Source of the DNA: Dehalococcoidia bacterium
GTDB lineage: Bacteria > Chloroflexota > Dehalococcoidia > DSTF01 > JACRBR01
NCBI GenBank assembly: GCA_035650575.1
Contig: DASRHM010000114.1
Coordinates: 2,265 to 66,264, forward strand
Reading direction: 5' to 3'
Length of the DNA stretch: 64,000 nucleotides
The translations under genes and the position numbers were made by a program. The notes under the pieces are model-generated. The model was not told where the DNA came from. It made no database searches and was given only the letters and a program-made list of their open reading frames with translations. This document shows, piece by piece, positions 28,595 to 45,000 of this stretch; the stretch's first letter is position 1; the number at the start of each line of letters is the position of its first letter.

Positions 28595-29503
28595 TCAGGG
28601 CCGAACCGCGACGGGGGTCGCCTCGACGGCGAGCGCGTTAAACCCGTCCCGTGACCAGAACACGCGCCCGGCACCGAGCCGCTGCTCCAGCGCGTCGTAA
28701 AGACGCTCCGCTGCGCTGATGTCCTGCCAGTCTCCCCAGCCGAGTTCTGCAAAACGCGCTGGGAGCGGGCGGTGACGCGTGCGCTTGCCGTTGGAGCCAT
28801 CGCCGAAGAACGTATCGACGATCACGCGATCTGCGGCGGATTCCAGTGCATCGGCGAAACGCTCGAGCGAGTGAGGAAGCGTCGGACTGACGGCGGCCTG
28901 CACATGGATCCCCAGCGCACGAGCCTGGCGCATGGTCGTGAGCCGACGTTCGACGCTTGGGCATGTAGGTGTGAGCGCTCGCCGCACGGCATCATCATCT
29001 GTCTCAACGGTCATCGAGAGCCAGGCGAATGGCATCTCGGCGAGAAGGTCGAAGTCCTCCTCGACGAAGGGAGAGCGGGTCTGAACCACGAGCACACCGA
29101 TCGGGTGCTCGTGGAACACCTCAAGGATAGAGCGCGTGATCCGGAGCTTCGCCTCCGCTGGCTGATAGGGATCCGTCGCGGAGCTCATGAAGACGCGCAC
29201 GGACTTTGGGTCGCTGAGGACTCCAAGGTCTCGGCGAAGCGCCTCGGCGGCGTTCGCCTTGGCGCGCAGCCACTTCCCCCAGGGCTTGCCAGCGTAGAGG
29301 CCGATCGGCGACTCCGCGACGTAGCAGTAGACGCCGCAGCCGCCGTCGCCGAACGCGCATCCCATGTACGGGTTCAGGGTATGCGTGAACGCGTACAGGA
29401 ACCCGCTTGCGGGCGTGAGCACGCGGCTCGTGCGAACCAGTTCGGGCTGGAGCAACGCTGGACCTCGACAATGACCCATAGCACGGATGTTCTTCTTGGT
29501 CAA
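28595..29503 (-). CDS. Putative radical-SAM-related Fe-S protein of the SplB/COG1533 (DNA-photolyase-like) family
   Basis: Cys cluster MGCAFGDGGCGVYCYV near the N-terminus, followed by a TIM-barrel-like series (VRVFMSSATDPYQP, LSMTVETDD, VQAAVSPTLP) resembling SPL-family proteins. Cys spacing C-x6-C-x3-C is atypical. Confidence 0.45.
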   Translation of the reverse strand: MTKKNIRAMGHCRGPALLQPELVRTSRVLTPASGFLYAFTHTLNPYMGCAFGDGGCGVYCYVAESPIGLYAGKPWGKWLRAKANAAEALRRDLGVLSDPKSVRVFMSSATDPYQPAEAKLRITRSILEVFHEHPIGVLVVQTRSPFVEEDFDLLAEMPFAWLSMTVETDDDAVRRALTPTCPSVERRLTTMRQARALGIHVQAAVSPTLPHSLERFADALESAADRVIVDTFFGDGSNGKRTRHRPLPARFAELGWGDWQDISAAERLYDALEQRLGAGRVFWSRDGFNALAVEATPVAVRP

Positions 29504-30139: not shown

Positions 30140-33100
30140 TCACGCTTTTCCAAAGACGTCCTGGAGTTCCCTCAGCTGGTCGTGCCAAGTCGGCGGCGTC
30201 GTGAATCGCAAAGCTACGACCCGGTAACCCGCATCCTCCAACGCCGTGCGAGCAGCTGCATCCTTTCGCTGCTGGTGTACTGTGTGGTGCGCCGCGCCAT
30301 CGATGAACACGCAGATTCCAGGGGCGCCACTGTCTCGCTCGTAATAGAAGTCGGGCTGGGCGGCGATGCGCGAATCGGGCCTATTCTGTGCATTGTCAGG
30401 AAGGCGATGGCCGTACTCATACAGGTGGTCAAGGAAAGAAGCTTCTGCACGTGATCGCGGATCCAGCAATCCTCTGAGCCGCTGGTATTGGTCGTCGCGC
30501 GACCGACCCTTCGATTCCACCACGAGACTCGATGCCAATCTCAGCAGATGATCACGAATAAGCCGACGGTCGATCAGCCGTTGTTCGATCTGGTTGGAGT
30601 AACTTAGGAGGCACTCGTAGCAGCCCACGACGCACTGAAAGTCCCTCGGGGCCAGTTCTTGGCCAGTCGCAGCATCATAGTGACAGACCGACAGCGCGCG
30701 TCTGGCGACTGCAGCGAGAGCCCCGGCCTCCTCAACGATGCGCTCGAACACACCGGTTCCACCTTCCGCAGCTTCCCAGAACAGGATGCCGCGACGCTCA
30801 CCGCTGCCGATGAGCTCCGCCTCGATTTCCTGCTGTTCCACCTGGTATTCGAGCTCGATGCCGTGCCTGAGAGCGTAGAGGAGCGTCGTCAAGAACGGGT
30901 CGTCTCGATTGGGGGCGGGGTAATACAAGAGCAGGTTGCGGTGGTCGAACACGAACGGCTTGAGCCCCGCGATCGGTGCCGGCAGATCAGGCTCGTCGTC
31001 ATCAGCGACGACGGCGTCGGCCTCCATCTTCCGCCACCGTCCGGTCGATGGCTCAATTTGATACCCCTTGCGGTCACTTTGACGCCGGCCGTGGTTGATT
31101 CGCCAGAGCGTGGCAGCCTGGCCGTAAATCAGATGAGCAAGCTCATCCCCCTCGGAGCTGCGTATCGATGCAGGGCGGCGCCGCGCAGGCGGCACGAAGC
31201 AGAAATGGGTGGACGTGGCGTACCCATTGCGGAGCCGCTCCTCCTCGTCTGAAGAGATCCGGTCAGTAATGCGCGCCCTCATTGTCGGCTGCTCCAGAAG
31301 CTTCTCTTCCAGCCGCGACGCGCTGGCATCGAGCCGGCCACCGCAGCCATCGCACAACTCGTTGTCGACGCGCTCGTCGGTGTGGATGTAACCACAGTTG
31401 ATGCAGATACGGCCTCTGCGCAGCCTTCCTTCCAGGCCCGTGACAGGCACGATCGCCGCATCAACACGATGCTTCCGCCCTTCGTGATAGACGATGTTCA
31501 TCGGGGCGAACTCGGTCAGGCCAATAAACCGCGGACGGTCGATCGATTTCGCCGTGTCTCGAACACTGACCATCACGCGCACGGGAAGCCGAGGGAAGTT
31601 GTAGCCGGGAAGGAATCCCTCAGCGCCCAAATAGCGGTAAGGGTAGAAATCGGATTCCTGCAAACGCGACTCGCTCTTGCTCGCGCTCGCGTTGAGCAAC
31701 AGGTCGAGTTCGCGCCTTGCCTCACGCTCCCGTTGCTCAGCGCGTTCCTTCTCGCGCTGGTCTGGCCTCGGCGCATCGATGATCGCCCGGGCTCCGTCGC
31801 GCATGTCTTCCGCCGACCGGTACAGTTCGCGCCAGCGTCCGAGAGCGGTCTCCAGCGCCGATGGCGCCTCGCGAATTGTGCGTGCGAGCCAGTCCTCGCT
31901 GAACCACCATGCTTGCCGGATCTCGGGGGCTCGCTCAATCACGGCCCTCGCAGCGGCAAGAGCTTTGTCATACCACTGATCTGTACGTGCAATGTCGTCC
32001 TTTTTTTGGAGCGGATATTGCCGTGTGCGATCGGTCAGGTCGAGGACGTCGGCCATACTCTGGCCGAAGGAGATGCTCGTCTCCGAAAGCCACGTCGCCT
32101 GGAGGTGCGCCTGCACTAACTCCGGATTCTGGAGGTCCATGCGCGCCGGAGCGACGGCGCCAGCAATCATCCGCTCACGTTGGCGGAAGAAGTACTGATC
32201 GTGCACGTTGCCTTGCGCGGCGAACGTCAGAATCAAGGCGGGCCGGCCGCCACGTCCAGCTCGTCCGCTGCGCTGTGCGTAGTTGGCAGGTGTGGGCGGC
32301 ACGTTGCGGAGATGAACGCTGTTGAGGTCTCTGATGTCGACACCGAGCTCCATGGTCGGTGAACAGAACAGGGCCGGTAGTTCTCCCTTGCGGAAGCGCT
32401 CCTCACGGTCGATGCGGTCATCCACATCGACCTGACCCGTGTGTTCCCGTCCAAGCATCCCGCGCAGGTCACGGGCGCCCACGCGATACAACTCGCGAAA
32501 GTACGAGTTCGGTTCGCGCGCGCCCACCTCACGGCGAAGGTACAGCGCTCGCGAGCGGACTCTGTCAGGGGGTGGCGCCACGCCCGTGCCGGGCAGCCAG
32601 CGAATCGCGCTCGCAAGCACCCGAACGCCGCGTTCCGTCCCCCGTCGCGACACAACGCTGAGAATGTGGCCCCGAAGGTTCTCCACGATGCCCCGTATGA
32701 GCTGCTCGCCCTCCTGCGTAGACAGGTCGTGGTCCAGATCCCACGTGCGCTTGGAACGCAGATATCGCCCGATCGCCGAGCGCGACGTCATCCGGGTGTA
32801 CCGCCGTCGCCACTCAGTCTCATCAGGTTCAACACCGGGTAACAGCACGAGCGACTGGCGGATCAGCTGGTCTCGCGGGTCGAGCGCCCAGGGATCGCGC
32901 AGCCCCTGACTCTCCGTCGCCCGCATCGTGAGACGGCGAGTCGCCTGCTCCGTGAGGAGGTCAGCCTCGATCGCGAGCTGCGTCCGGAGGTGATCGAGCA
33001 CGGCTCCAAGGACCTCTTCTCGCCGACCCGGTGGGGCGCCCCCGATTCCGGGCAGCCGTTGCCAACGGGCGTCGTCGGCGGCGAGCTCGCGCAGGCCGTC

Positions 33101-35296
33101 ATAGTCGATGCGCAGCAGCCCGGCCTGTTCGAGATTCGGCTGTGCAACCCGCCAGCCGCGACTGAGGTCCTCGATCGCACGATATTGCAGCAGCTCGATC
33201 ATCACGTCGCGCAGGCGCTGATATCCCGGGCTTCCGAGGGGAAGGTCTTCCTTTAGGAAGTCCGCGGGCCGGAAGTCCAGCTCCTCGAATATGGCCGGTC
33301 CGAGCTCGCCGAAATCGAGACTTCCGCGCTTCTGTACCGCGCTTGCGATCGCCGATCGCAACTGCGCGACGGTCACGAAGTCATTGAGATGTCCGGCCTG
33401 GAGCGACGCGTCCTGGCGGTTGTCGGTAAAGCTGAGGATCTTGCACGCTTCAGGGTCCACGTCACCAGCACGACGCATGTTTGCGACGGCGGCATGCACT
33501 ACGACAGAGGTGGCGGTCGAGCGGCCGATCTGGCTCAGCGACGAGAGCTTGTAGAAGTCCCTGTTGCGGAAGTCATATGCCGCCCGGCAGCGGAGACAGA
33601 GCATCAGCGGCCGCGGCTGGAACCAGCCGTGCACGCCTTCGCCGGCGTGGCCGTCGCGGAGCGTACCGTCCGCCGACGCTGTGAACGCGCGTGGCACGTG
33701 GGGCAGGTAGTTCTCCTTGATGCGCGGACCGGATTTGCGCTCCACGAACCAGAAGTCGGGCAGCTCATCCTCGTCGTTGCCCCAGAGCCGGTCGTCGGGC
33801 GTGCCGGGCTCGGTGCTGAAGAAGCCGCCCTCGCCCGGAATGTCTTCGTCAGACGCACCCACGATCGGCGATCGCGGCACGAGCCGCGCGCCGTCGCCCT
33901 CTCCTATTAGCGAACACAGGTAGTACTCCTGGCCACATTCGCGGCAGAACACCAGCGGGAACAGTACGCGCTCCTCGTCGAGCTTGTACTGCGCCTCCAT
34001 CGTGAGCGGACGGCGATCGGGCGGCTCCAGCGTCGTGTAGACGCTGCTGCCGGACGACAGGAACTGGTGCAGCCGGAAGGGAAAGACTCGCTGATCCTCA
34101 GCGATGCGCGCCGCATTCCCCACCTCGAGCACGGCGCGTAGCCGCTGCCGGCACGTGTCCTCGCCGACGCCGGATTGCGACGCCAGCCGTCGCACCGCCT
34201 CGTCGAAGGTCACCGGCGGTTGCCGGACCAGCCTCCCCTCCTCGACCGTGAGGCCGAATGTCTCCTCCGCCCAGGCGGCCAACGGGTGATGCGTCACCTC
34301 GTCGACGCCGGCGCCGACGGGAGCGTCCGCAGGCACCATCGGCGGCGGCTGCATCTGGACCGCCGCCCGCAGCTCCTGGGGCGTCGCCGGTGCCGGGACC
34401 TGCGTCACGCGGCGGAGGGTCTCGTCGATGACATTGGCGGGCGGCACCTCGACGCCGAACAACCTCGACGCGACCTCGGCGATCGTGCGATGCCGCTCCT
34501 CGCGCGTGCCCTCGGTCGTGAGCGTCGCGCTGGTGCCGACCATCTGCAGATCGTGGCCGGCGCGCTGCTGGACGCGGCGCAGCAGCATCGCGACGTCAGC
34601 GCCCTGGCGTCCGCGATAGAAGTGCAGCTCGTCCATCACGAGGAATCGCAGGTCGCGTGTCGCCGTCTCAACCAGGGTGCGCTCCCAGGGCCGGACGAGG
34701 AAGTACTCGAGCATCACGTAGTTGGTGAGGAGGATGTGCGGCGGATCCGCGAGGATTCGGTCGCGATCTGCCTCCTTGGTCTGACCTGTGTATTGATCGA
34801 ATCGCACGGAGCAATCGGCGAAATTGAGGTCGCGGTACTCCTGCAGCGCCTTGAGCTGGCTGTTGATGAGCGCGTTCATCGGATAGACGATGATCGCGCG
34901 CACGGAGTGCCGCTCCGGCTGCGCGCGCATGATCTCGTCGAAGATCGGCACGAGGTACGTCAGGCTCTTGCCGGACCCGGTGCCCGTGGTGACGACGTAC
35001 GGCTCGCCGCGCTTCGCGATCTCCAGCGCCTGCTTCTGGTGCCGGTGCAGCCGGATGCCCTCGCCGAAGAAGCGCGCCGTCTCGGGCACCAGCGTGCCGT
35101 CCTTCGCCAGCTCGCCGAGCGTCTCGTCCTGCTCGTAGGCCGGGTTGAGCTGCAGTACCGCCTCCGGCCAGAGCACGCCCTTGGCCAGCTCCTCGCGCAC
35201 GAAGTCGTTGATGCGGTCGTCGAGCACGCGCACGAAGCTCTCGACGTACCGCCGGTACTCGTCGACTACGCCATCACGAAGCTTGAAGACGTCCAT
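30140..35296 (-). CDS. Giant (1718 aa) defense helicase: DEAD/DEAH-box helicase core + DUF1998-like Cys4 zinc module + C-terminal DUF559/Vsr-like PD-(D/E)xK nuclease domain (fused DrmA/DrmB-like protein)
   Basis: Helicase motif I VVTTGTGSGKSLTY and motif II VMDELHFY; multiple CxxC pairs (CRECGQEYYLC, ICINCGYIH...CDGCGG, VGCYECLLSYSNQ) typical of DUF1998/MrfA C-termini; extreme C-terminus ICVFIDGAAHHTVHQQRKDAAARTALEDAGYRVVALRF matches the DUF559 consensus. ATG at 35296 follows an AGGGACGGG RBS, 15 nt after the DUF4411 stop. Confidence 0.85.
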   Translation of the reverse strand: MDVFKLRDGVVDEYRRYVESFVRVLDDRINDFVREELAKGVLWPEAVLQLNPAYEQDETLGELAKDGTLVPETARFFGEGIRLHRHQKQALEIAKRGEPYVVTTGTGSGKSLTYLVPIFDEIMRAQPERHSVRAIIVYPMNALINSQLKALQEYRDLNFADCSVRFDQYTGQTKEADRDRILADPPHILLTNYVMLEYFLVRPWERTLVETATRDLRFLVMDELHFYRGRQGADVAMLLRRVQQRAGHDLQMVGTSATLTTEGTREERHRTIAEVASRLFGVEVPPANVIDETLRRVTQVPAPATPQELRAAVQMQPPPMVPADAPVGAGVDEVTHHPLAAWAEETFGLTVEEGRLVRQPPVTFDEAVRRLASQSGVGEDTCRQRLRAVLEVGNAARIAEDQRVFPFRLHQFLSSGSSVYTTLEPPDRRPLTMEAQYKLDEERVLFPLVFCRECGQEYYLCSLIGEGDGARLVPRSPIVGASDEDIPGEGGFFSTEPGTPDDRLWGNDEDELPDFWFVERKSGPRIKENYLPHVPRAFTASADGTLRDGHAGEGVHGWFQPRPLMLCLRCRAAYDFRNRDFYKLSSLSQIGRSTATSVVVHAAVANMRRAGDVDPEACKILSFTDNRQDASLQAGHLNDFVTVAQLRSAIASAVQKRGSLDFGELGPAIFEELDFRPADFLKEDLPLGSPGYQRLRDVMIELLQYRAIEDLSRGWRVAQPNLEQAGLLRIDYDGLRELAADDARWQRLPGIGGAPPGRREEVLGAVLDHLRTQLAIEADLLTEQATRRLTMRATESQGLRDPWALDPRDQLIRQSLVLLPGVEPDETEWRRRYTRMTSRSAIGRYLRSKRTWDLDHDLSTQEGEQLIRGIVENLRGHILSVVSRRGTERGVRVLASAIRWLPGTGVAPPPDRVRSRALYLRREVGAREPNSYFRELYRVGARDLRGMLGREHTGQVDVDDRIDREERFRKGELPALFCSPTMELGVDIRDLNSVHLRNVPPTPANYAQRSGRAGRGGRPALILTFAAQGNVHDQYFFRQRERMIAGAVAPARMDLQNPELVQAHLQATWLSETSISFGQSMADVLDLTDRTRQYPLQKKDDIARTDQWYDKALAAARAVIERAPEIRQAWWFSEDWLARTIREAPSALETALGRWRELYRSAEDMRDGARAIIDAPRPDQREKERAEQREREARRELDLLLNASASKSESRLQESDFYPYRYLGAEGFLPGYNFPRLPVRVMVSVRDTAKSIDRPRFIGLTEFAPMNIVYHEGRKHRVDAAIVPVTGLEGRLRRGRICINCGYIHTDERVDNELCDGCGGRLDASASRLEEKLLEQPTMRARITDRISSDEEERLRNGYATSTHFCFVPPARRRPASIRSSEGDELAHLIYGQAATLWRINHGRRQSDRKGYQIEPSTGRWRKMEADAVVADDDEPDLPAPIAGLKPFVFDHRNLLLYYPAPNRDDPFLTTLLYALRHGIELEYQVEQQEIEAELIGSGERRGILFWEAAEGGTGVFERIVEEAGALAAVARRALSVCHYDAATGQELAPRDFQCVVGCYECLLSYSNQIEQRLIDRRLIRDHLLRLASSLVVESKGRSRDDQYQRLRGLLDPRSRAEASFLDHLYEYGHRLPDNAQNRPDSRIAAQPDFYYERDSGAPGICVFIDGAAHHTVHQQRKDAAARTALEDAGYRVVALRFTTPPTWHDQLRELQDVFGKA

Positions 35297-35313
35297 GCCC
35301 GTCCCTCGTCGCC

Positions 35314-35784
35314 CTAGATAGACCAGCCCTGCTCCCGGATCACGTCGACCAGTCGAACGCAACGGACGCCGAGAGCCGTACAAACGTCCGGGATGTTCGG
35401 CTTGGCGGTGTTCCCAGTAGGCATTTCGTCGGTCACAACCGCGCAAGCGCGCTGCACCGCAAGCGCGATCACGAATGGATCCGCTGCGGATCGATTCGTG
35501 CGGGTGTCTACGAGTCGCGGGTAGTCCCTCATGATATCTCGAACGATCGGTTGAACCTCATCGTCAATAGGGACGAATAGAGCGGGACGCTCACGCGCCC
35601 ACTGATAAAGCTCGTCGTCTTTTCTCTCGATCTCGACGCGAACCTCATCGGAGGCGATCAACACGGCGTTTTGGACCAGCCCATCTATCCTCCCCCAGAC
35701 TGTTGGGAATATGTCTGGAGGATAATGCTTCCGCCAGGCATTGATCAGCATGCTAGAGTCACCGCTGTACGCAGGATTGGGCAT
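35314..35784 (-). CDS. DUF4411-family protein (PIN-like putative nuclease/effector)
   Basis: 156 aa; its start ATG overlaps the ImmA-gene stop (ATGA). DUF4411 assignment made from memory of the family; it pairs with HTH-ImmA genes in defense islands. Confidence 0.55.
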   Translation of the reverse strand: MPNPAYSGDSSMLINAWRKHYPPDIFPTVWGRIDGLVQNAVLIASDEVRVEIERKDDELYQWARERPALFVPIDDEVQPIVRDIMRDYPRLVDTRTNRSAADPFVIALAVQRACAVVTDEMPTGNTAKPNIPDVCTALGVRCVRLVDVIREQGWSI

Positions 35785-36962
35785 CAGGACGCAGCCCTCA
35801 TGAGATCGCTCTCGATGCGCGACAAGTGCTTGAGCCGGACCCCCAAGAGCCCGGCGACGTCACTCGCCGTGATGCGATCCTGGGAGTAGCTGGCGAGCAC
35901 CAGACGCACGAACGCCGGGCCAGCGCTCGCGAGTGCCATCCGGTGTGGCGGAGCGAAACCGCCTTCGCGGGACGGCTGACGCAAGTATTCCTCGTGGAAC
36001 TCGCGTAGCTTAGCCTCGAAGTATGCGTTCGTAATGACGTCTAGCGTCCGGAGACGACGGAGAATCACTTCGCGACTGACCCCGAAGGTCTCGGCTAGCT
36101 GGCGCAGATCGGTGTCGCTCCAGCTGGAGACGGTGGCCCCCGACGATATCAACGGAGTGCCGAGCAGTCGATCGCGCGGCACGAGAGCAGCCGCAGCGAC
36201 GCGGTTGCACAACTGCTCTATCCTCTGGTCATCCGTCCCGCCGGTAGGCAGCTCTTCAGGCGAGACGTTGCAGAGTCCGAATTGCCGAAGTGCGAGGTGC
36301 GTCAGCTCATGGAAGAGGCTGAAGATGCGACCGGCAATTGCATCCTTGATGTTCAGAACTATGGCGGGAAGGCGTTCGGAGTAGATGCAGAAAGCCCGCA
36401 TTTCCTTGAGTTCAACGTCAGTGGCTTGAAAGACTAGAACTCCGGCGGTCTCGAACTTTGCGCGCAACGCGTTTAACGTTTCGTAGCCAGCAGCCCAGCG
36501 CTCCTGTTCTGCGCCGGTTAGACCGACGAACTCCCGGAGCCGGACACCAAGGTTCTCGGAATCCTCATGGTCATCCGCCGTCAGGACGAAAGCCGGCGCC
36601 TCCCCCTCCATCGCCTCGAGCAGATCCTGCGCGATCTCACGTCGGTCTTGAGCGAGCCGCACTTGGAAGCGCAGCTCTGGCGATTCGACCGGCGTGTCTC
36701 CGGGTAGTCTTCTGAAGTCACGAAGTGCCTGAAACTCGGTCGGCGGCTCGGGCAAGTAGAAGACGGCAAGTGGCCGCTTGTACGCTGTGCCGAGCTTCCG
36801 AAGTTGCGCGATGGTAGGACGGCCTTCGCCGCGCTCCCAGCCCTCTAGGCGGTCGGGCTTAACCGGGATCTTCTTGGCGGCCGTCGCTACGTCAAGGCCC
36901 GCGCTTCCTCTGGCCCAGGCGAGCACCGCAGGTTCAACTTGAGCTTCAACGCGAACGGTCAT
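35784..36962 (-). CDS. XRE-type HTH fused to ImmA/IrrE-family zinc metallopeptidase
   Basis: N-terminal HTH (LDVATAAKKIPVKPDRLEGWERGEGRPTIAQLRKLGTAYKRP) and HEXXH motif SLFHELTHLAL in the ImmA/IrrE (COG2856) context. ATG at 36962 preferred over the TTG at 36995. Confidence 0.8.
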   Translation of the reverse strand: MTVRVEAQVEPAVLAWARGSAGLDVATAAKKIPVKPDRLEGWERGEGRPTIAQLRKLGTAYKRPLAVFYLPEPPTEFQALRDFRRLPGDTPVESPELRFQVRLAQDRREIAQDLLEAMEGEAPAFVLTADDHEDSENLGVRLREFVGLTGAEQERWAAGYETLNALRAKFETAGVLVFQATDVELKEMRAFCIYSERLPAIVLNIKDAIAGRIFSLFHELTHLALRQFGLCNVSPEELPTGGTDDQRIEQLCNRVAAAALVPRDRLLGTPLISSGATVSSWSDTDLRQLAETFGVSREVILRRLRTLDVITNAYFEAKLREFHEEYLRQPSREGGFAPPHRMALASAGPAFVRLVLASYSQDRITASDVAGLLGVRLKHLSRIESDLMRAAS

Positions 36963-37031
36963 AGTGCCCAAAAGCCTACACGGCACCCCCAGCAACGGCG
37001 ATGGACGCGCCGCAACTGCGAGAGCGCCTCC

Positions 37032-37817
37032 TCACGCCGTCTCGCTCGGCAGCGGTTTCCCCGCGGCCAGGAGATCATACGACTCCAGCACCAACCGCAT
37101 CGTCCGGTACTCCCCCCAGCGCGCGATCTCCTTGTTCTTCAGCCCCCGGAACGATTCACTCGGCGGCTGGGCGTCGAGGATCCATTCCAGGTCGGGGCCG
37201 TCGAGCTGGTAGAGGTGGGCGATGATGGCGTCGATCTCGCAGCGGAGCTGGAGCCGGCGGCCCTCGTCCCAGGCGTACGGCGGCCGTCGTAGCCGAGGTC
37301 GCGGGCGAACGGCGCCAGGTCGTCGGCCGTGTACGTCAGCTCCAGCACGCGTGGTACCAGCAGTTCCGCGTACGTGCAGCCGACCGGTGACCGTTCGAGG
37401 AAGTACTGCGGCGGCAACACGGGCAACTGCTTCACGATGAAGAAGTTCATGTTGACGCCGCCGACCGAGAAGCGGGCCGCCCAGTCGAGCACGATGGAGT
37501 CAAGGTTTGCGAGAAGCAACGACGCCGCGGCGGCGACTGGATCAATGCGAAGCAGCGTCGTTGAGTCGCTAAAGCCGGATACGCCCGAGCCGGCGACTAT
37601 CGTCGTGCGCTCGTCAGTCGCGCGTGTGATCTTCCTGAATGCCTGCAGCCATCCATGGCCAAGCTGTCCGACGAGCGGCGCCTTGTTGCTCACGGCTGTC
37701 GCCTCGATGACTGCGACGATTGCGGTGCGCTCATCGGTCGCGCGCGCGATATCGCGGAATGCGAGAAGCCAACCACAATACCACTGTTCCCGAGCGCCAC
37801 TGCGCCGGTCATTGCCA
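37032..37817 (-). pseudogene. Out-of-frame C-terminal remnants of the PglX/DrmMI-like methyltransferase (two frames)
   Basis: The frame open from the SSR to about 37139 encodes ...NMNFFIVKQLPVLPP...LELTYTADDLAPFARDLGYDG. After a 1-nt deletion in a C run (about 37283) the next frame encodes PPYAWDEGRRLQLRCEIDAIIAHLYQLDGPDLEWILD...YGEYRTMRLVLESYDLLAAGKPLPSETA*, the conserved PglX-type C-terminus. Confidence 0.7.
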
Positions 37818-40800
37818 TCACGAACGTCCTCTCGTCTGTGGACCGCGCGATCGAGCGAAACGCCACTTGCCAGCCGCGAGTTGAGCGAATACTCTCTCTC
37901 TCTCTCTCTCTCTCTGCGTCAGCGCACTAGCAGGGGCAAGCCGCGCGGCCACCTCCTCCGCCGGCACCCAGTAGCGCGGGATGACGAGGCGGCGCGGGTC
38001 GCGCTTCTCGGCGGGCGTCAGCTCGCGGGCGTTGCCCTTCTTGCGGTCGTCCTCGCCGACGCCGTCGAACGTGGCGAAGCGGTGGTCGTACTGGTGGAAG
38101 AGCTTCGCCTCGTAGAGCGGCAGGTACGTGCGGCCGTCGCCGTGGCGGAAGACGTTGCCCTCCAGCGCGAAGCCTTCGGCGCGCAGCTCCGCCGCCGTGC
38201 GGAAGAGATGCGAGTCGTTGGACATGTCGAAGAGGCGCTGGAAGCTCACGCCCCACGAGTTCTCCTCGCCCTCCCCATCGCGCGCCTCCCGCACGAAGAC
38301 GCCGGCGCGGCGGTAGAGCTTCGCGGCGATCTCGGCGTCGCGGCGGCTGCGGAACGTGGGGGCCGTGCGCGTGTTCGGGTTGAACAGCGCGAAGTCGGCG
38401 GGCGCCAGCGTGAAGCGGCGCTCCGGGTCGCGCACGTGGGCGACGTCTGTGCAGAAGAACGCGAACTCGGCGGGAGGCGCGTCGCCGTCGGGCGCGCCGC
38501 GCAGGGTCAGGAGGCAGAACTTGATGCGGCTATCGATGCCGGGGAAGATTCCCTCTCGGTTCTCGAAGTCGAACAGGCTGGCCAGTCGCCCGGAGCCGGC
38601 GAAGCTCGCGAACAGCTCCTTCGTCGTGTCGTCGGTCGCGACGCCGCTCGGGCAGATCACGCCGCTCCGGCCGTTGATATGCAGCAACGCGTGGTCTGCT
38701 TCCACGAAGACGGCGTAGAGGTTCACATCGCCGCGCCCGCCCAGGGGGAATCTGCCGGACTGGCGCAGGAACGCGCTCGCTTTCTCCGCAGTGCGCTGCG
38801 CTTCGTTGAACTCCGCGAAGAGCTGCTGGTCGGCTGCCTCCGTCGAGCGTGCGAGCGCCTCGATCATGCGCTTGCGCGAGGCGGCATTCGGCGCCTGTGC
38901 GATGTCCCGCGAGCGGCTCGCGAAGAACTCCTGCTGCGAGAGCTTCACGCGCTCCCACGGCGGGTTCCCCAGCACGACGTCAAACCCGCTCTTCAGCTGC
39001 ATGATGTCGGGGAATTCGAGCGGCCAGTGGAAGAAGCGCTGTTTCTCGCTGAAGGCGACCGCTTCGCCCACGAGCTGGGCGTCGGCGGCGTTCGGCTGCA
39101 GCAGGTAGCGCCGCACCGTGTCGGTCGTCGGGACGCGCGCGGCGCCGCGCAGCGGCGCGAAGAACGCATAGGTCCAGAGGTCGCAGGCCGTCTTCCACTG
39201 CCACCACGCCGTCCCGCGGCCGCGGATGCGCTCGTACAGCTGCTCCTTGCGGTGGACGTCGTCCGGCGTGCGCTCGTCGGTCGCGGCCAGCCTGCTGAAG
39301 GCGTCGGCGAGCTGGCCCTGGCCGTCGATGCCGCTCACCTCGACCAAAGCCGTCTGCCCGGTGCGCTCCTCGCGGTTGCGCTTGCGGATGGCCGTCGCGG
39401 CAGCCTTGTCGTCGCCGGTGACCGGCTTGTACGCGTCGTCCGGGATCCCCTCTTCGAGCACCTTCAGGTCGAACACGCCGACCAGGCTGTCGCCGCATTT
39501 GATGTGGTGGTCGAGGAAGTTCAGCGGTAGGCCGGCGTTGTGGCCCTCGATCCAGAGCGCGACCTTGCAGAGGTCGACGGCCAGCGGGTTCTTGTCGACA
39601 GCGTAGATGCAACTGCGGATGACGTCGCGCAGCGCCTCGCGGTACTTCTCCGGCGGCGGCTCTTCCTCTTCGACGCGGGTCTTCGCCAGTTCGGTCGCGA
39701 TCTTGCGCGCGGCCGCGAGGAGGAAGTGACCCGAACCCGCCGCCGGGTCGCACACCCGCAGCGCCAGCAGCGCCGCCTCGCGCTCGGCCTTCGTCTTCGC
39801 GCCGCGCAGCCGCTCCTCCATCACCGGCACGAGCGCGCTCTCGATGAGCTCGCGCACCAGCTCGGGCGGCGTGTAGTAGCTGCCGGTCTGCTTGCGCTCG
39901 CTGCCGGTGACCAGCGCGAACTGGCGGCGCTGCAGGTCCACCTTCGGGTGGAAGTCGAGCAGGCTTTCGTAGACGGAGCCGAACTCCTCGACATCGAGTG
40001 CCGCGTAGTTCACGCGCCGGCGCGGGCCTCGGCGGCGGCGCCGGCCCGACCCCTGCTCGTCGACGAACGTGGACAGGTGCCGGATAGCGCGCAGGAGGTC
40101 GGCGTTCGTGCAGACGGCCGGCTCCAGATCGCGGCAGGCGGGCTCGCCGAACAGCTCGCCGTCGAGCGCGCGCATGTCGAGCTTCCGCGCCACGTCGTCG
40201 TCGCGGAACATGCGGAACGTCTGCCGCAGCGAGATCCACAGGTCAGCGTGCGTATCGCTCGCGAAGTGCCGCTCGGCGCGGCCGCGCAGCCGTCCGATGC
40301 TGTAGTAGTCGGTGTAGATTTGATGCCGCTCCGTCGCAGCGACGTCCGGAGGGAAGATCAGCCGGCGCTCCTCGGCGACCATGAGGAACAGGAAGCGATA
40401 CACGAGACGCAGGAGCTGCCGGTAGTACGCCGTCGCATCGAGCGCGCCCGAGGACAGGCGCTCGCGCAGCGCCTCGCTCTCGGAATGGGCGAGGAAGGCG
40501 GTGCCGAGGACCTGGAGCGCCTGCTCGACGCCGTCGCGCAGCTTCTCGCGGACGCGGCCGCCCTGCTCGATGCCCTGCTGGTAGTAGCGTTCGAGCAGGC
40601 AGTCGCGCGGGTCGTCGCCGCGGGGGAACCGTGATGCGTGCAGGAGCCGGAAGAGCAGCGCGAACTCGCTGAAGAGGTTCGCGCCGATCATCGTCTCCAG
40701 GTCGAACTCGACGTACGTCGGCTTCGTGAAGATGTTGCTATCGCGCAGGAGCCGGAGCCGGCGCCCGTTCGTGACGATGCCCCAGAGCGCGTCGGAGCGG

Positions 40801-41248
40801 TTCAGGAACTCCTGCACGACGGCGTGCGACGTGCGGCGCGCGCTGCCGGCGCGGCGGTCCAACTCTTCGTCGAAGGCAACGACGTGCACGGGCGCCGCGT
40901 GCTCGCTCTCGCCCATGCGGTGCGAGATGAAGTAGCTCTGTCCGCCGGCCTCCGCCGAGGCGCGCTGCAAGACGAGCTGATAGCCGAGGCACTCGGACAG
41001 CAGGGGCACCACCCACGCCTCTCGCGTGATCGTCGTGGCGCTCTCGCGCGTGCGTTCAAGTCGGCGCTGGAAGGCGTCCCAGTAGAGCCGCGCGTCCGAG
41101 AAGGCCGACTGGATCTCGTCAGCCGGCCGGCGGTTGCCGTCGAGGCCGAAATCCGCCGCGCGCTGCCCCTCGGCGTCGCCGGCGGCGATGCTGTCGAGGA
41201 GGTCCGGCGGGAACAGCCCGCCCTCGAGCGTCACTGACGTCCACGCCA

Positions 41249-41249
<1 letters not shown>
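37818..41249 (-). CDS. PglX/DrmMI-like N6-adenine DNA methyltransferase (type IIG/IIL-like), 1143-aa reading frame truncated after an in-frame (AG)12 tract
   Basis: Motif I VCDPAAGSGHFLLAAARK, motif IV VLGNPPWERV, and N-terminal PglX-like region. Start ATG 41249..41247 overlaps the SNF2 stop (TGATG). Reading frame ends 24 codons after the SSR-encoded QRERERER. Confidence 0.8.
37892..37915. repeat. (CT)12/(AG)12 dinucleotide microsatellite inside the methyltransferase coding frame
   Basis: Perfect 24-nt dinucleotide run, encoding RERERER on the minus strand; a candidate slipped-strand phase-variation site. Confidence 0.9.
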
Positions 41250-44115
<2,866 letters not shown>

Positions 44116-44830: not shown

Positions 44831-44969
44831 CGGGCGGCCAGCATCGGCGCTGCGATGGCGCCGGCCCTCCGGAGCGCGTGCGCGGCGGCGCCGGGCGTGG
44901 TACAGGCGTGGGTGGAGGTGGCTGTGGAGCGGGAGACGAGACTCGAACTCGCGACCCTCTGCTTGGGAA
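44831..44969. repeat. Right 139-bp direct repeat of the island (attR-like), covering tRNA-Gly nt 32-76 plus the 94 nt downstream of the tRNA
   Basis: Pairs ungapped with 28231..28369 (10 mismatches). Confidence 0.85.
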
Positions 44970-45000
44970 GCAGATGCTCTACCGGCTGAGCTACTCCCGC
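44925..45000 (-). tRNA. tRNA-Gly (anticodon CCC)
   Basis: Reverse strand GCGGGAGTAGCTCAGCCGGTAGAGCATCTGCTTCCCAAGCAGAGGGTCGCGAGTTCGAGTCTCGTCTCCCGCTCCA; cloverleaf with 7-bp acceptor stem, TTCGAGT T-loop, encoded CCA, and anticodon loop CTTCCCAAG. Confidence 0.9.

Follow-up and report, generated by a model that had tools for sequence, protein, structure and literature searches.

The window analysed here is a 64,000-nucleotide (nt) stretch of a Dehalococcoidia bacterium (contig DASRHM010000114.1 of assembly GCA_035650575.1, positions 2,265 to 66,264), and our subject is armB, a gene on its minus strand (37032..41249) that encodes a predicted N6-adenine DNA methyltransferase of an ARMADA-like defence operon. 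We consider it probable that a simple sequence repeat (SSR) inside armB is a conserved frame-selecting switch among three ArmB products, and that the copy in the window is off and decaying. In the mechanism that we propose, a hypermutable repeat would lie in a disordered linker just past a PRYWVPEEEV..RLDK helix in one ArmB subfamily, found mostly in Chloroflexota, and slipped-strand gain or loss of units at replication would move the ribosome among three frames, because the repeat unit is never a multiple of three. In frame A, translation would stop after about 25 codons. In frame B, it would read module 1—a four-strand element of about 36 amino acids (aa) that would complete the preceding domain—and then stop without the ~170-aa helical C-terminal domain. 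In frame C, module 1 would serve as a linker to modules 2 and 3 and the C-terminal domain, giving the full-length enzyme.

The repeat and the reading frames of the window gene

The armB gene runs from an ATG at 41249 to a final stop at 37034..37032, as delimited and identified using Pfam, PADLOC, full-length homolog alignment and Foldseek. It encodes the S-adenosylmethionine (SAM)-binding motif DPAAGSGHF (39723..39749; invariant in the homolog alignment) and the catalytic motif NPPW (38955..38966; invariant in two homolog alignments). A conserved anchor recognized by homolog comparison, PRYWVPAEEV..RL.. (37914..37979), ends just ahead of the putative frame selector, (AG)12 at 37892..37915 on the minus strand, which reads (CT)12 on the plus strand. 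The tract lies inside the open reading frame (ORF), has a unit that is not a multiple of three and is of a length that permits slippage. Tandem Repeats Finder lists no other perfect dinucleotide array in the window, and a 16-nt AG pattern gave no match in 100 dinucleotide-preserving shuffles.

An earlier reading of the window, made from the DNA letters alone (the sequence-only reading), had described a methyltransferase gene spread over three segments, and its frame arithmetic was borne out. As it claimed, the tract stands within the methyltransferase frame, which passes it as ..LTQRERERER-VFAQLAAGKWRFARSRGPQTRGRS (reading through the tract: ..APASALTQRERERER) and terminates 24 codons further on, at a TGA at 37820..37818; this 1143-aa ORF (37818..41249, minus strand; state A) is also the one called on the source contig. 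The second frame, for which about 260 codons had been given, is a +2-nt frame open over 259 codons (37918..37142) that carries family sequence as far as ..DLGYDG at 37283. There, GG-CCGCCG (37281..37285) lacks one base relative to homologs, which read GYDGPPF/Y. The sequence-only reading had placed a missing C at this point: one base is indeed absent near 37283, but as the third position of a Gly codon it need not have been C. The last frame encodes PPYAWDEGRRLQ...YGEYRTMRLVLESYD.. up to the stop at 37034..37032 and is, as had been stated, the frame of the gene body. The proposed ancestral gene of about 1405 aa could likewise be rebuilt: insertion in silico of one AG unit and one base yields a 1406-aa product that aligns end to end with homologs of 1402–1406 aa, at 56–58% identity over 100% of its length.

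The number of AG units sets the frame in which the sequence behind the tract is read. The 12 units now present give frame A, with the stop at 37820..37818; 11 units give frame B, in which module 1 is read before a TGA at 37692..37690; and 13 units give frame C, which passes module 1 as a linker and continues into modules 2 and 3 and the C-terminal domain, in keeping with the earlier rule that full length takes n = 1 mod 3 units. That the frame entered at 11 units also carries family sequence had been missed.

A repeat hotspot at one codon position

We surveyed relatives of armB at the protein level, using the best 120 database homologs, and at the DNA level, using 80 related loci from species-representative genomes (L numbers; P numbers denote homologs). 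Among the 120 homologs, many ORFs end at the repeat site, just past PRYWVPEEEV..RLDK, and many carry periodic peptides there (ERERER, PPPPPPPP and peptides with 5-, 7-, 8- and 10-aa periods). In simple members of the family, which come from cyanobacteria and many other sources, the anchor and the C-terminal domain are separated by about 170 nt, with one copy of a W..FR.I...T(D/N)ERT.. module in a single frame and no repeat. In the expanded subfamily, mostly from metagenome-assembled genomes (MAGs) of Dehalococcoidia and other Chloroflexota, complete chromosomes included, this distance is 440–600 nt.

Conservation of the tract, which the sequence-only reading had left to a comparison of orthologs, is evident at the level of the site: a non-triplet repeat occupies the same codon position in 14 related loci (L001–L004, L007, L008, L011, L012, L016–L019, L022 and L058). 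Tetranucleotide units are found as (GACC)6 in L001, (CAGA)25 in L002, (AGAC)15 in L004, (CAGA)30 in L017, (CAGA)21 in L018, (CCAG)4 in L019 and (AGCC)27 in L058, and longer units as (GACAC)36 in L007, (ACAGGGCC)8 in L008, (GACAG)10 in L011, (AGACTACA)7 then (TCGGAAGG)11 in L012, (AGGCTGG)6 in L016 and (AGCCGCG)21 in L022. The relatives thus carry 4 to 36 units of 4–8 nt, and over the window and the 14 loci together the units measure 1, 2, 4, 5, 7 or 8 nt, none a multiple of three. The L003 contig breaks off at the repeat position in 51 consecutive G (L003:3673-3723), likely a sequencing or assembly artefact. L002, a complete Dehalococcoidia chromosome, has neither modules nor a C-terminal domain after its (CAGA)25 (L002:9323-9422); the 3′ part of the gene has apparently been lost or replaced from this point. 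Double repeats also occur back to back, as two 8-nt units in L012 (L012:9304-9451) and as an 8-nt unit plus a dinucleotide in P0096 and P0101; they would permit finer or independent frame control.

The state of the gene varies among close relatives. The anchor and the C-terminal domain are in frame in three loci and out of frame in nine, as well as in the window, and each of the three states accounts for roughly a third of the ORFs of the subfamily. Products of about 1140, 1180 and 1405 aa, representing all three states, occur together in clusters at 90% identity (for example, P0131 with 1140 aa, P0126 with 1182 aa, P0129 with 1411 aa and P0133 with 1407 aa), and P0070 (frame B) and P0172 (frame C) have common flanks around seven versus two ACCG units. 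When metagenome contigs were searched for exact matches to the repeat flanks of the window, none was found, and hence no second sample of its species; in a scan of species-representative genomes (GTDB) no locus exceeded 60% identity, so that the species, or at least its island, is missing from the representatives.

Two further kinds of variation were seen in the same proteins. In P0126, P0161, P0149 and other members of the same 90% clusters, a stretch of about 130 aa after NPPW (about residues 765–900) occurs in at least three quite different versions (DQVQLDPREFFATRDHEV.., DQVQPEEVSFFGTHEPS.. and ERIKLQEKEFFDTRDRDI..) in otherwise near-identical proteins; recombination appears to have exchanged cassettes here, and the stretch could add a second dimension to ArmB variation. 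Another subgroup, comprising L068 (Roseomonas), L024, L046, P0026, P0029, P0035 and P0047, has an in-frame helical insertion of about 95 aa at the linker and no repeat, indicating that the linker site tolerates very different insertions.

Three modules in different frames

Behind the repeat, the window contains three diverged copies of a ~36-aa module (W..FR.I.R.TDERT..). Module 1 (GWQVAFRSIARSTDERTFVMAMTGAVALGNSGIVVG; 37768..37875) is read only in frame B, a frame assigned from codon-phase substitutions in nine loci, and module 2 (GWLLAFRDIARATDERTAIVAVIEATAVSNKAPLVGQL; 37661..37774) and module 3 (GWLQAFRKITRATDERTTIVAGSGVSGFSDSTTLLRID; 37541..37654) are read in frame C. They are followed by part 1 of the C-terminal helical domain, also in frame C (..LANLDSIVLDWAARFSVGG..KQLPVLPP..DLGYDG; 37283..37540), the single-base deletion described above, and part 2 in the frame of the gene body (PPYAWDE..GEYRTMRLVLESYD..; 37032..37283); all lie on the minus strand. 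Measured between DERT codons, modules 1 and 2 are 101 nt apart and modules 2 and 3 are 120 nt apart, which puts module 1 in another frame than modules 2 and 3.

This layout recurs in eight relatives (L001, L004, L011, L017, L018, L019, L022 and L058), with modules 1 and 2 exactly 107 nt apart and modules 2 and 3 120 nt apart (117 nt in L019). A sister clade (L007, L012 and L016) has its three modules 110–113 nt apart, each one frame onward, so that there is one module per frame and only the last runs on into the C-terminal domain. All frame-shifting spacings between modules equal 2 mod 3. Database ORFs agree with the three states: those in frame A end ..LAELARSSLSG..RPTSGR.., those in frame B end ..LALR.I.RATDERTG...MIP..GLG.SGTTI.VGSSPSE.., and those in frame C are full length. 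The stops of frames A and B take the form NTGA and overlap an ATG, GTG or TTG of the next frame. In the window, such (A/G)TGA stops lie at 37818..37821 and 37690..37693, with stops at the same positions in L001, L004, L017–L019, L022 and L058. Module 2 has Ser or Asn where the other modules have Gly (AV/M-S/N-NKAP versus GVGNKAP), a change that creates the TGA.

Substitution patterns show which of these frames have been maintained. Across nine loci, substitutions at codon positions 1/2/3 were 0.44/0.30/0.65 for module 1 in frame B, a pattern of the same shape as those of module 2 (0.42/0.22/0.59) and module 3 (0.40/0.25/0.70) in frame C. The mean amino-acid identity of module 1 was 47% in frame B versus 27% and 22% in the other frames. 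Through module 1, frame C is free of stops in all nine loci and frame A contains a stop in all nine. Module 1 is under purifying selection in frame B, and frame C, too, has stayed open across it. Of the module regions of the sister clade, the first (alpha) is open in three frames, the second (beta) in two and the third (gamma) in one, which is the pattern required for nested read-through. Moreover, all nine relatives that are out of frame keep the reading frame of the C-terminal domain free of stops: it is uninterrupted for 298–351 codons, beginning within the repeat or shortly ahead of it and reaching the natural end of the protein (..EYRTQRYVLQAYDQ..), so that gaining or losing units would by itself restore the full gene. 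Shufflon-like or deletion recombination among the modules, which are direct repeats, was considered and rejected: no recombinase gene lies nearby, and the copies are only about 55–65% alike (DNA, judged by eye).

Predicted structures

Predicted structures (AlphaFold) of two homologs suggest how the states may differ. In the model of P0059, a state C protein, the stretch after the PRYWV helix (residues 886–974), made up of the peptide encoded by the repeat, module 1 read out of frame, and module 2, has pLDDT (per-residue confidence) values below 50, whereas module 3 (978–1013) forms four confident strands and residues 1017–1174 form a confident helical domain; module 3 is thus the copy that is confidently folded in the full-length model. 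In the model of P0055, a frame B protein, module 1 (1122–1157) shows the same four-strand pattern with pLDDT values of 60–87, and the out-of-frame tail is disordered. We infer from these models that the repeat sits in a length-tolerant linker and that a module completes the preceding domain, which is probably the target-recognition domain; the packing of the module is judged from secondary structure and confidence alone. Frame B would then yield a folded enzyme core that lacks only the C-terminal domain.

Probable decay of the window copy and alternative explanations

The single-base deletion in the C-terminal domain is unique to the window among the relatives compared, and the adjacent helicase gene armA carries another (43594..43609, ..CAPHL(C)AQWEQEL..), at CAC CTT (T)GC GCG, which splits it into ORFs of 185 aa and 770 aa; relatives are continuous at this point (HLCEQWEEEL). 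The source contig comes from a MEGAHIT short-read assembly (European Nucleotide Archive ERZ27279688, k141_731365), and about 45 flanking core genes tile as intact ORFs. For both reasons we rejected long-read homopolymer error as the origin of the two deletions and regard the lesions in armB and armA as real. The window copy is in state A, and these lesions make it most likely that the system is inactivated and in decay rather than just switched off; the simplest account is that the operon was first switched off at the repeat and has decayed since.

The sequence-only reading had offered two possibilities, a two-state contingency switch and a decaying pseudogene. The latter fits the window copy, with its own deletions in the C-terminal domain and in armA. 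The former stands as regards a slipped-strand switch that is currently off for the C-terminal domain—it is backed by the non-triplet repeats at one site, by differences in copy number and state among relatives and by the intact downstream frames—but has to be extended from two states to three with distinct products.

Several points weigh against a frame-selecting switch. The loci are known from assemblies rather than reads, and the variation in tract length is one between loci, not one within a population. Many of the relatives come from metagenome assemblies, in which long repeats may be collapsed or miscounted, and single state calls may therefore err. A change in the tract alone could not rescue the window gene, given the extra deletion near 37283. 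The model does not place module 2 with confidence, although its sequence is conserved.

We weighed three other explanations. If armB were simply a decaying pseudogene, the AG tract would be an accidental low-complexity insertion and the frame changes ordinary inactivating frameshifts, with no switching. The two further single-base deletions on a short-read contig, the gene pair inserted into the operon (see below) and the absence of everything past the repeat in L002 all speak for such decay. It is nevertheless very unlikely to explain the family, in which non-triplet repeats with different units occur at the same site in 14 related loci, all three states occur within 90% identity clusters, the downstream frames of the nine out-of-frame relatives are intact rather than broken by random stops and indels at the window's rate, and module 1 is constrained like coding sequence in a frame that mere pseudogene decay would not have preserved. 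An assembly artefact, with intact genes and frame differences produced by miscounted repeats, is the least probable of the three. Assemblers have difficulty with repeats as long as (GACAC)36 and (CAGA)30, the run of 51 G in L003 is typical of a sequencing artefact and several cluster members are fragments inside long contigs; however, miscounting cannot yield a three-frame layout of modules with conserved spacing and frame-specific stops, several loci are complete MAG chromosomes (OZ/OY records), the 24-nt tract of the window fits within short-read length, and the states occur in about equal thirds instead of being mostly in frame.

Slippage by RNA polymerase or the ribosome, which would give every cell a fixed mixture of isoforms from one template and no heritable switching, is also a poor candidate, if slightly better placed than the other two. 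A layout that can be read in three frames would suit co-expression as well, and the overlaps of NTGA with ATG, GTG or TTG would allow termination–reinitiation. Against this, copy number differs at the DNA level among close relatives, and transcriptional slippage is established mainly for homopolymer runs; we also give reinitiation little weight, since geometry forces any TGA in the +1 frame to overlap an NTG codon.

On the reading that we favour, a frame-selecting switch, slippage would take place in the DNA and at a high rate. Frame C is most likely the defence-competent state, by analogy with Pgl and because ArmB and its NPPW motif are required in ARMADA. The truncated isoforms would be functional in their own right. 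Selection on module 1 speaks for the importance of the frame B product, which may methylate DNA uncoupled from the helicases, recognize a different target or merely spare the cell a toxic misfolded stub. In the most developed form of this proposal, selection would have shaped all frames such that a fold-completing module terminates the core in every state, the C-terminal domain is added in only one, and the module-terminated isoforms have their own activity; termination–reinitiation at the NTGA overlaps might, in addition, supply that domain as a chain of its own. We hold this form only tentatively and would sooner bet against it than for it.

Identity of armB and its operon

The armB product matches Eco57I and N6_Mtase (Pfam) and the DrmMI and type IIG models of PADLOC, and has the features of ArmB of ARMADA type I, a PglX-like N6-adenine methyltransferase with GxG and NPPW motifs. 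Its match to PglX in PADLOC is weak and partial (7.9e-10). The best Foldseek matches of the P0059 model (pLDDT 83.9) are the BREX proteins PglX/BrxX (9ewz and 8c45), with E values of about 1e-14, template modelling (TM) scores of about 0.4 and 10–11% identity; solved structures gave no match to sequence searches, whether run with a single protein or with a profile, so the link to PglX is one of fold comparison only. The label 'PglX-type' of the sequence-only reading is therefore apt at the level of fold and in the nomenclature of the ARMADA authors, and does not extend to membership of BREX.

The armA gene (41249..44115, minus strand; the 43594..43609 deletion splits it) encodes an SNF2/BrxHII/DrmD-like helicase, with PADLOC matches to DpdE (7.5e-132), DrmD (4.7e-63) and BrxHII (1.3e-41), as expected of ArmA; its stop overlaps the armB start (TGATG). 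On the other side, armC (30140..35446, minus strand) encodes an apparently intact 1768-aa YprA/DruE-like DEAD-box helicase with DEAD, Helicase_C and MZB (DUF1998) domains (Pfam, PADLOC), as expected of ArmC, and an ArmC homolog lies directly downstream of ArmB in most related loci. The PADLOC release used (2023) predates ARMADA, and its best matches to armC are DruE models, in agreement with the statement that the YprA proteins of ARMADA are closest to those of Druantia (bioRxiv 10.1101/2025.09.15.676423). By domain content and gene order, armB is thus predicted to be the PglX-like adenine methyltransferase of an ARMADA type I-like operon, armA–armB–armC.

The island ORFs scanned comprise the helicases, the methyltransferase, a helix-turn-helix (HTH)-M78/DUF4411 pair and a radical SAM protein. 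No PglZ phosphatase and no BrxC/PglY ATPase were found among them, and without PglZ or BrxC the system is not BREX. DISARM class 1, which the PADLOC matches to DrmMI and DrmD suggested, was rejected as well: DrmB (DUF499) and DrmC (PLD) were unmatched in the same ORFs, the helicase is a single fused 1768-aa YprA/DruE-like protein, and ARMADA fits better.

Between armB and armC lies an inserted pair of genes (35314..36995, minus strand; Pfam, PADLOC), encoding an HTH-XRE/M78 peptidase protein (35784..36995; labelled RmrA-like by PADLOC) and a DUF4411 PIN-like protein (35314..35784), which together resemble a toxin–antitoxin system. Most related loci have no such insertion, armC starting within about 100 nt of the armB end; L017 has a different ORF, of 275 aa, at this place. 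The defence genes occupy an island of lower GC content at third codon positions (GC3; 0.7–0.85 versus about 0.93 in the flanks) at about 28.3–44.9 kb, with a tRNA-Gly(ccc) gene at its edge (44925..45000, minus strand) and a radical SAM ORF (28595..29503) at the end away from the tRNA. No integrase was identified.

Relation to known systems

Repeat-driven phase variation of a PglX-like gene is already known (PMC4365076, PMC11341690). A G tract in pglX of Streptomyces coelicolor (Pgl, BREX type 2) phase-varies (Sumby and Smith 2003, as cited in PMC4365076), switching Pgl defence at 1e-2 to 1e-4 (PMC4365076). As in Pgl, the repeat of armB lies inside the PglX-like methyltransferase gene of a multi-gene defence system, its length shifts the frame, and the methyltransferase rather than another component is the variable gene. 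Unlike the homopolymer of Pgl, a simple on/off device, the armB repeat comes late in the gene (codon ~1110 of ~1400), uses units of 1 to 8 nt at one homologous site and is followed by off frames that encode conserved, selected modules.

In ARMADA, ArmB and its NPPW motif are required for protection, and the text of the paper that describes the system contains neither 'frameshift' nor 'phase vari' (bioRxiv 10.1101/2025.09.15.676423). The gene content and order of the window operon are those of the archaeal and cyanobacterial arrangement of type I (SNF2/BrxHII-like helicase, PglX-like methyltransferase and YprA-like helicase with DUF1998). Other ArmB proteins of ARMADA have one module and no repeat, in contrast to the repeat and three-module region, which are confined to one ArmB subfamily.

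Repeats also truncate Type I HsdS proteins. SSR-driven switching of C-terminal sequence has been described in Helicobacter canadensis (PMC2823697) and Neisseria gonorrhoeae (PMC5320596). In all of these cases, as in armB, a repeat in the 3′ part alters the C-terminus and does not abolish the protein, but none has been reported to have alternative ends that are homologous modules at a fixed frame offset under purifying selection. One phase-variable Type IIG gene is cj0031 of Campylobacter jejuni. Phase-variable Type III mod and Type IIG genes, the basis of phasevarions (PMC5909438), share with armB a slipped-strand repeat within the ORF of an N6-adenine methyltransferase. The phasevarion cases come from host-adapted pathogens and have repeats that are mostly 5′ and act as on/off switches, whereas armB belongs to environmental and symbiotic Chloroflexota and has three states. 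In the searchable literature we found no report of phase variation in ARMADA or DISARM methyltransferases, and none of a repeat followed by homologous modules in alternative frames under selection. What the comparison brings out is a family-wide design, of which the window gene is a degraded example.

To our knowledge, descriptions of phase-variable defence methyltransferases come mostly from pathogens and from Streptomyces Pgl, and in every case concern an on/off switch. In environmental and symbiotic Chloroflexota, the recently defined ARMADA system carries a conserved repeat hotspot behind which all three frames are coding, with one stretch selected in one frame and kept open in another. 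A truncated or split annotation of an ArmB gene in a MAG probably reflects a phase state in many cases, and such genes should not be counted as pseudogenes. If the three-state proposal is true, the isoforms could, for example, methylate without coupling to restriction or read an altered target, and defence-competent, modification-only and naive cells would coexist in a population. Should the truncated isoforms prove active, the armB repeat would be a compact genetic means of holding three heritable yet reversible modes of defence, and a clear example in nature of multi-frame coding under selection behind a mutable repeat.

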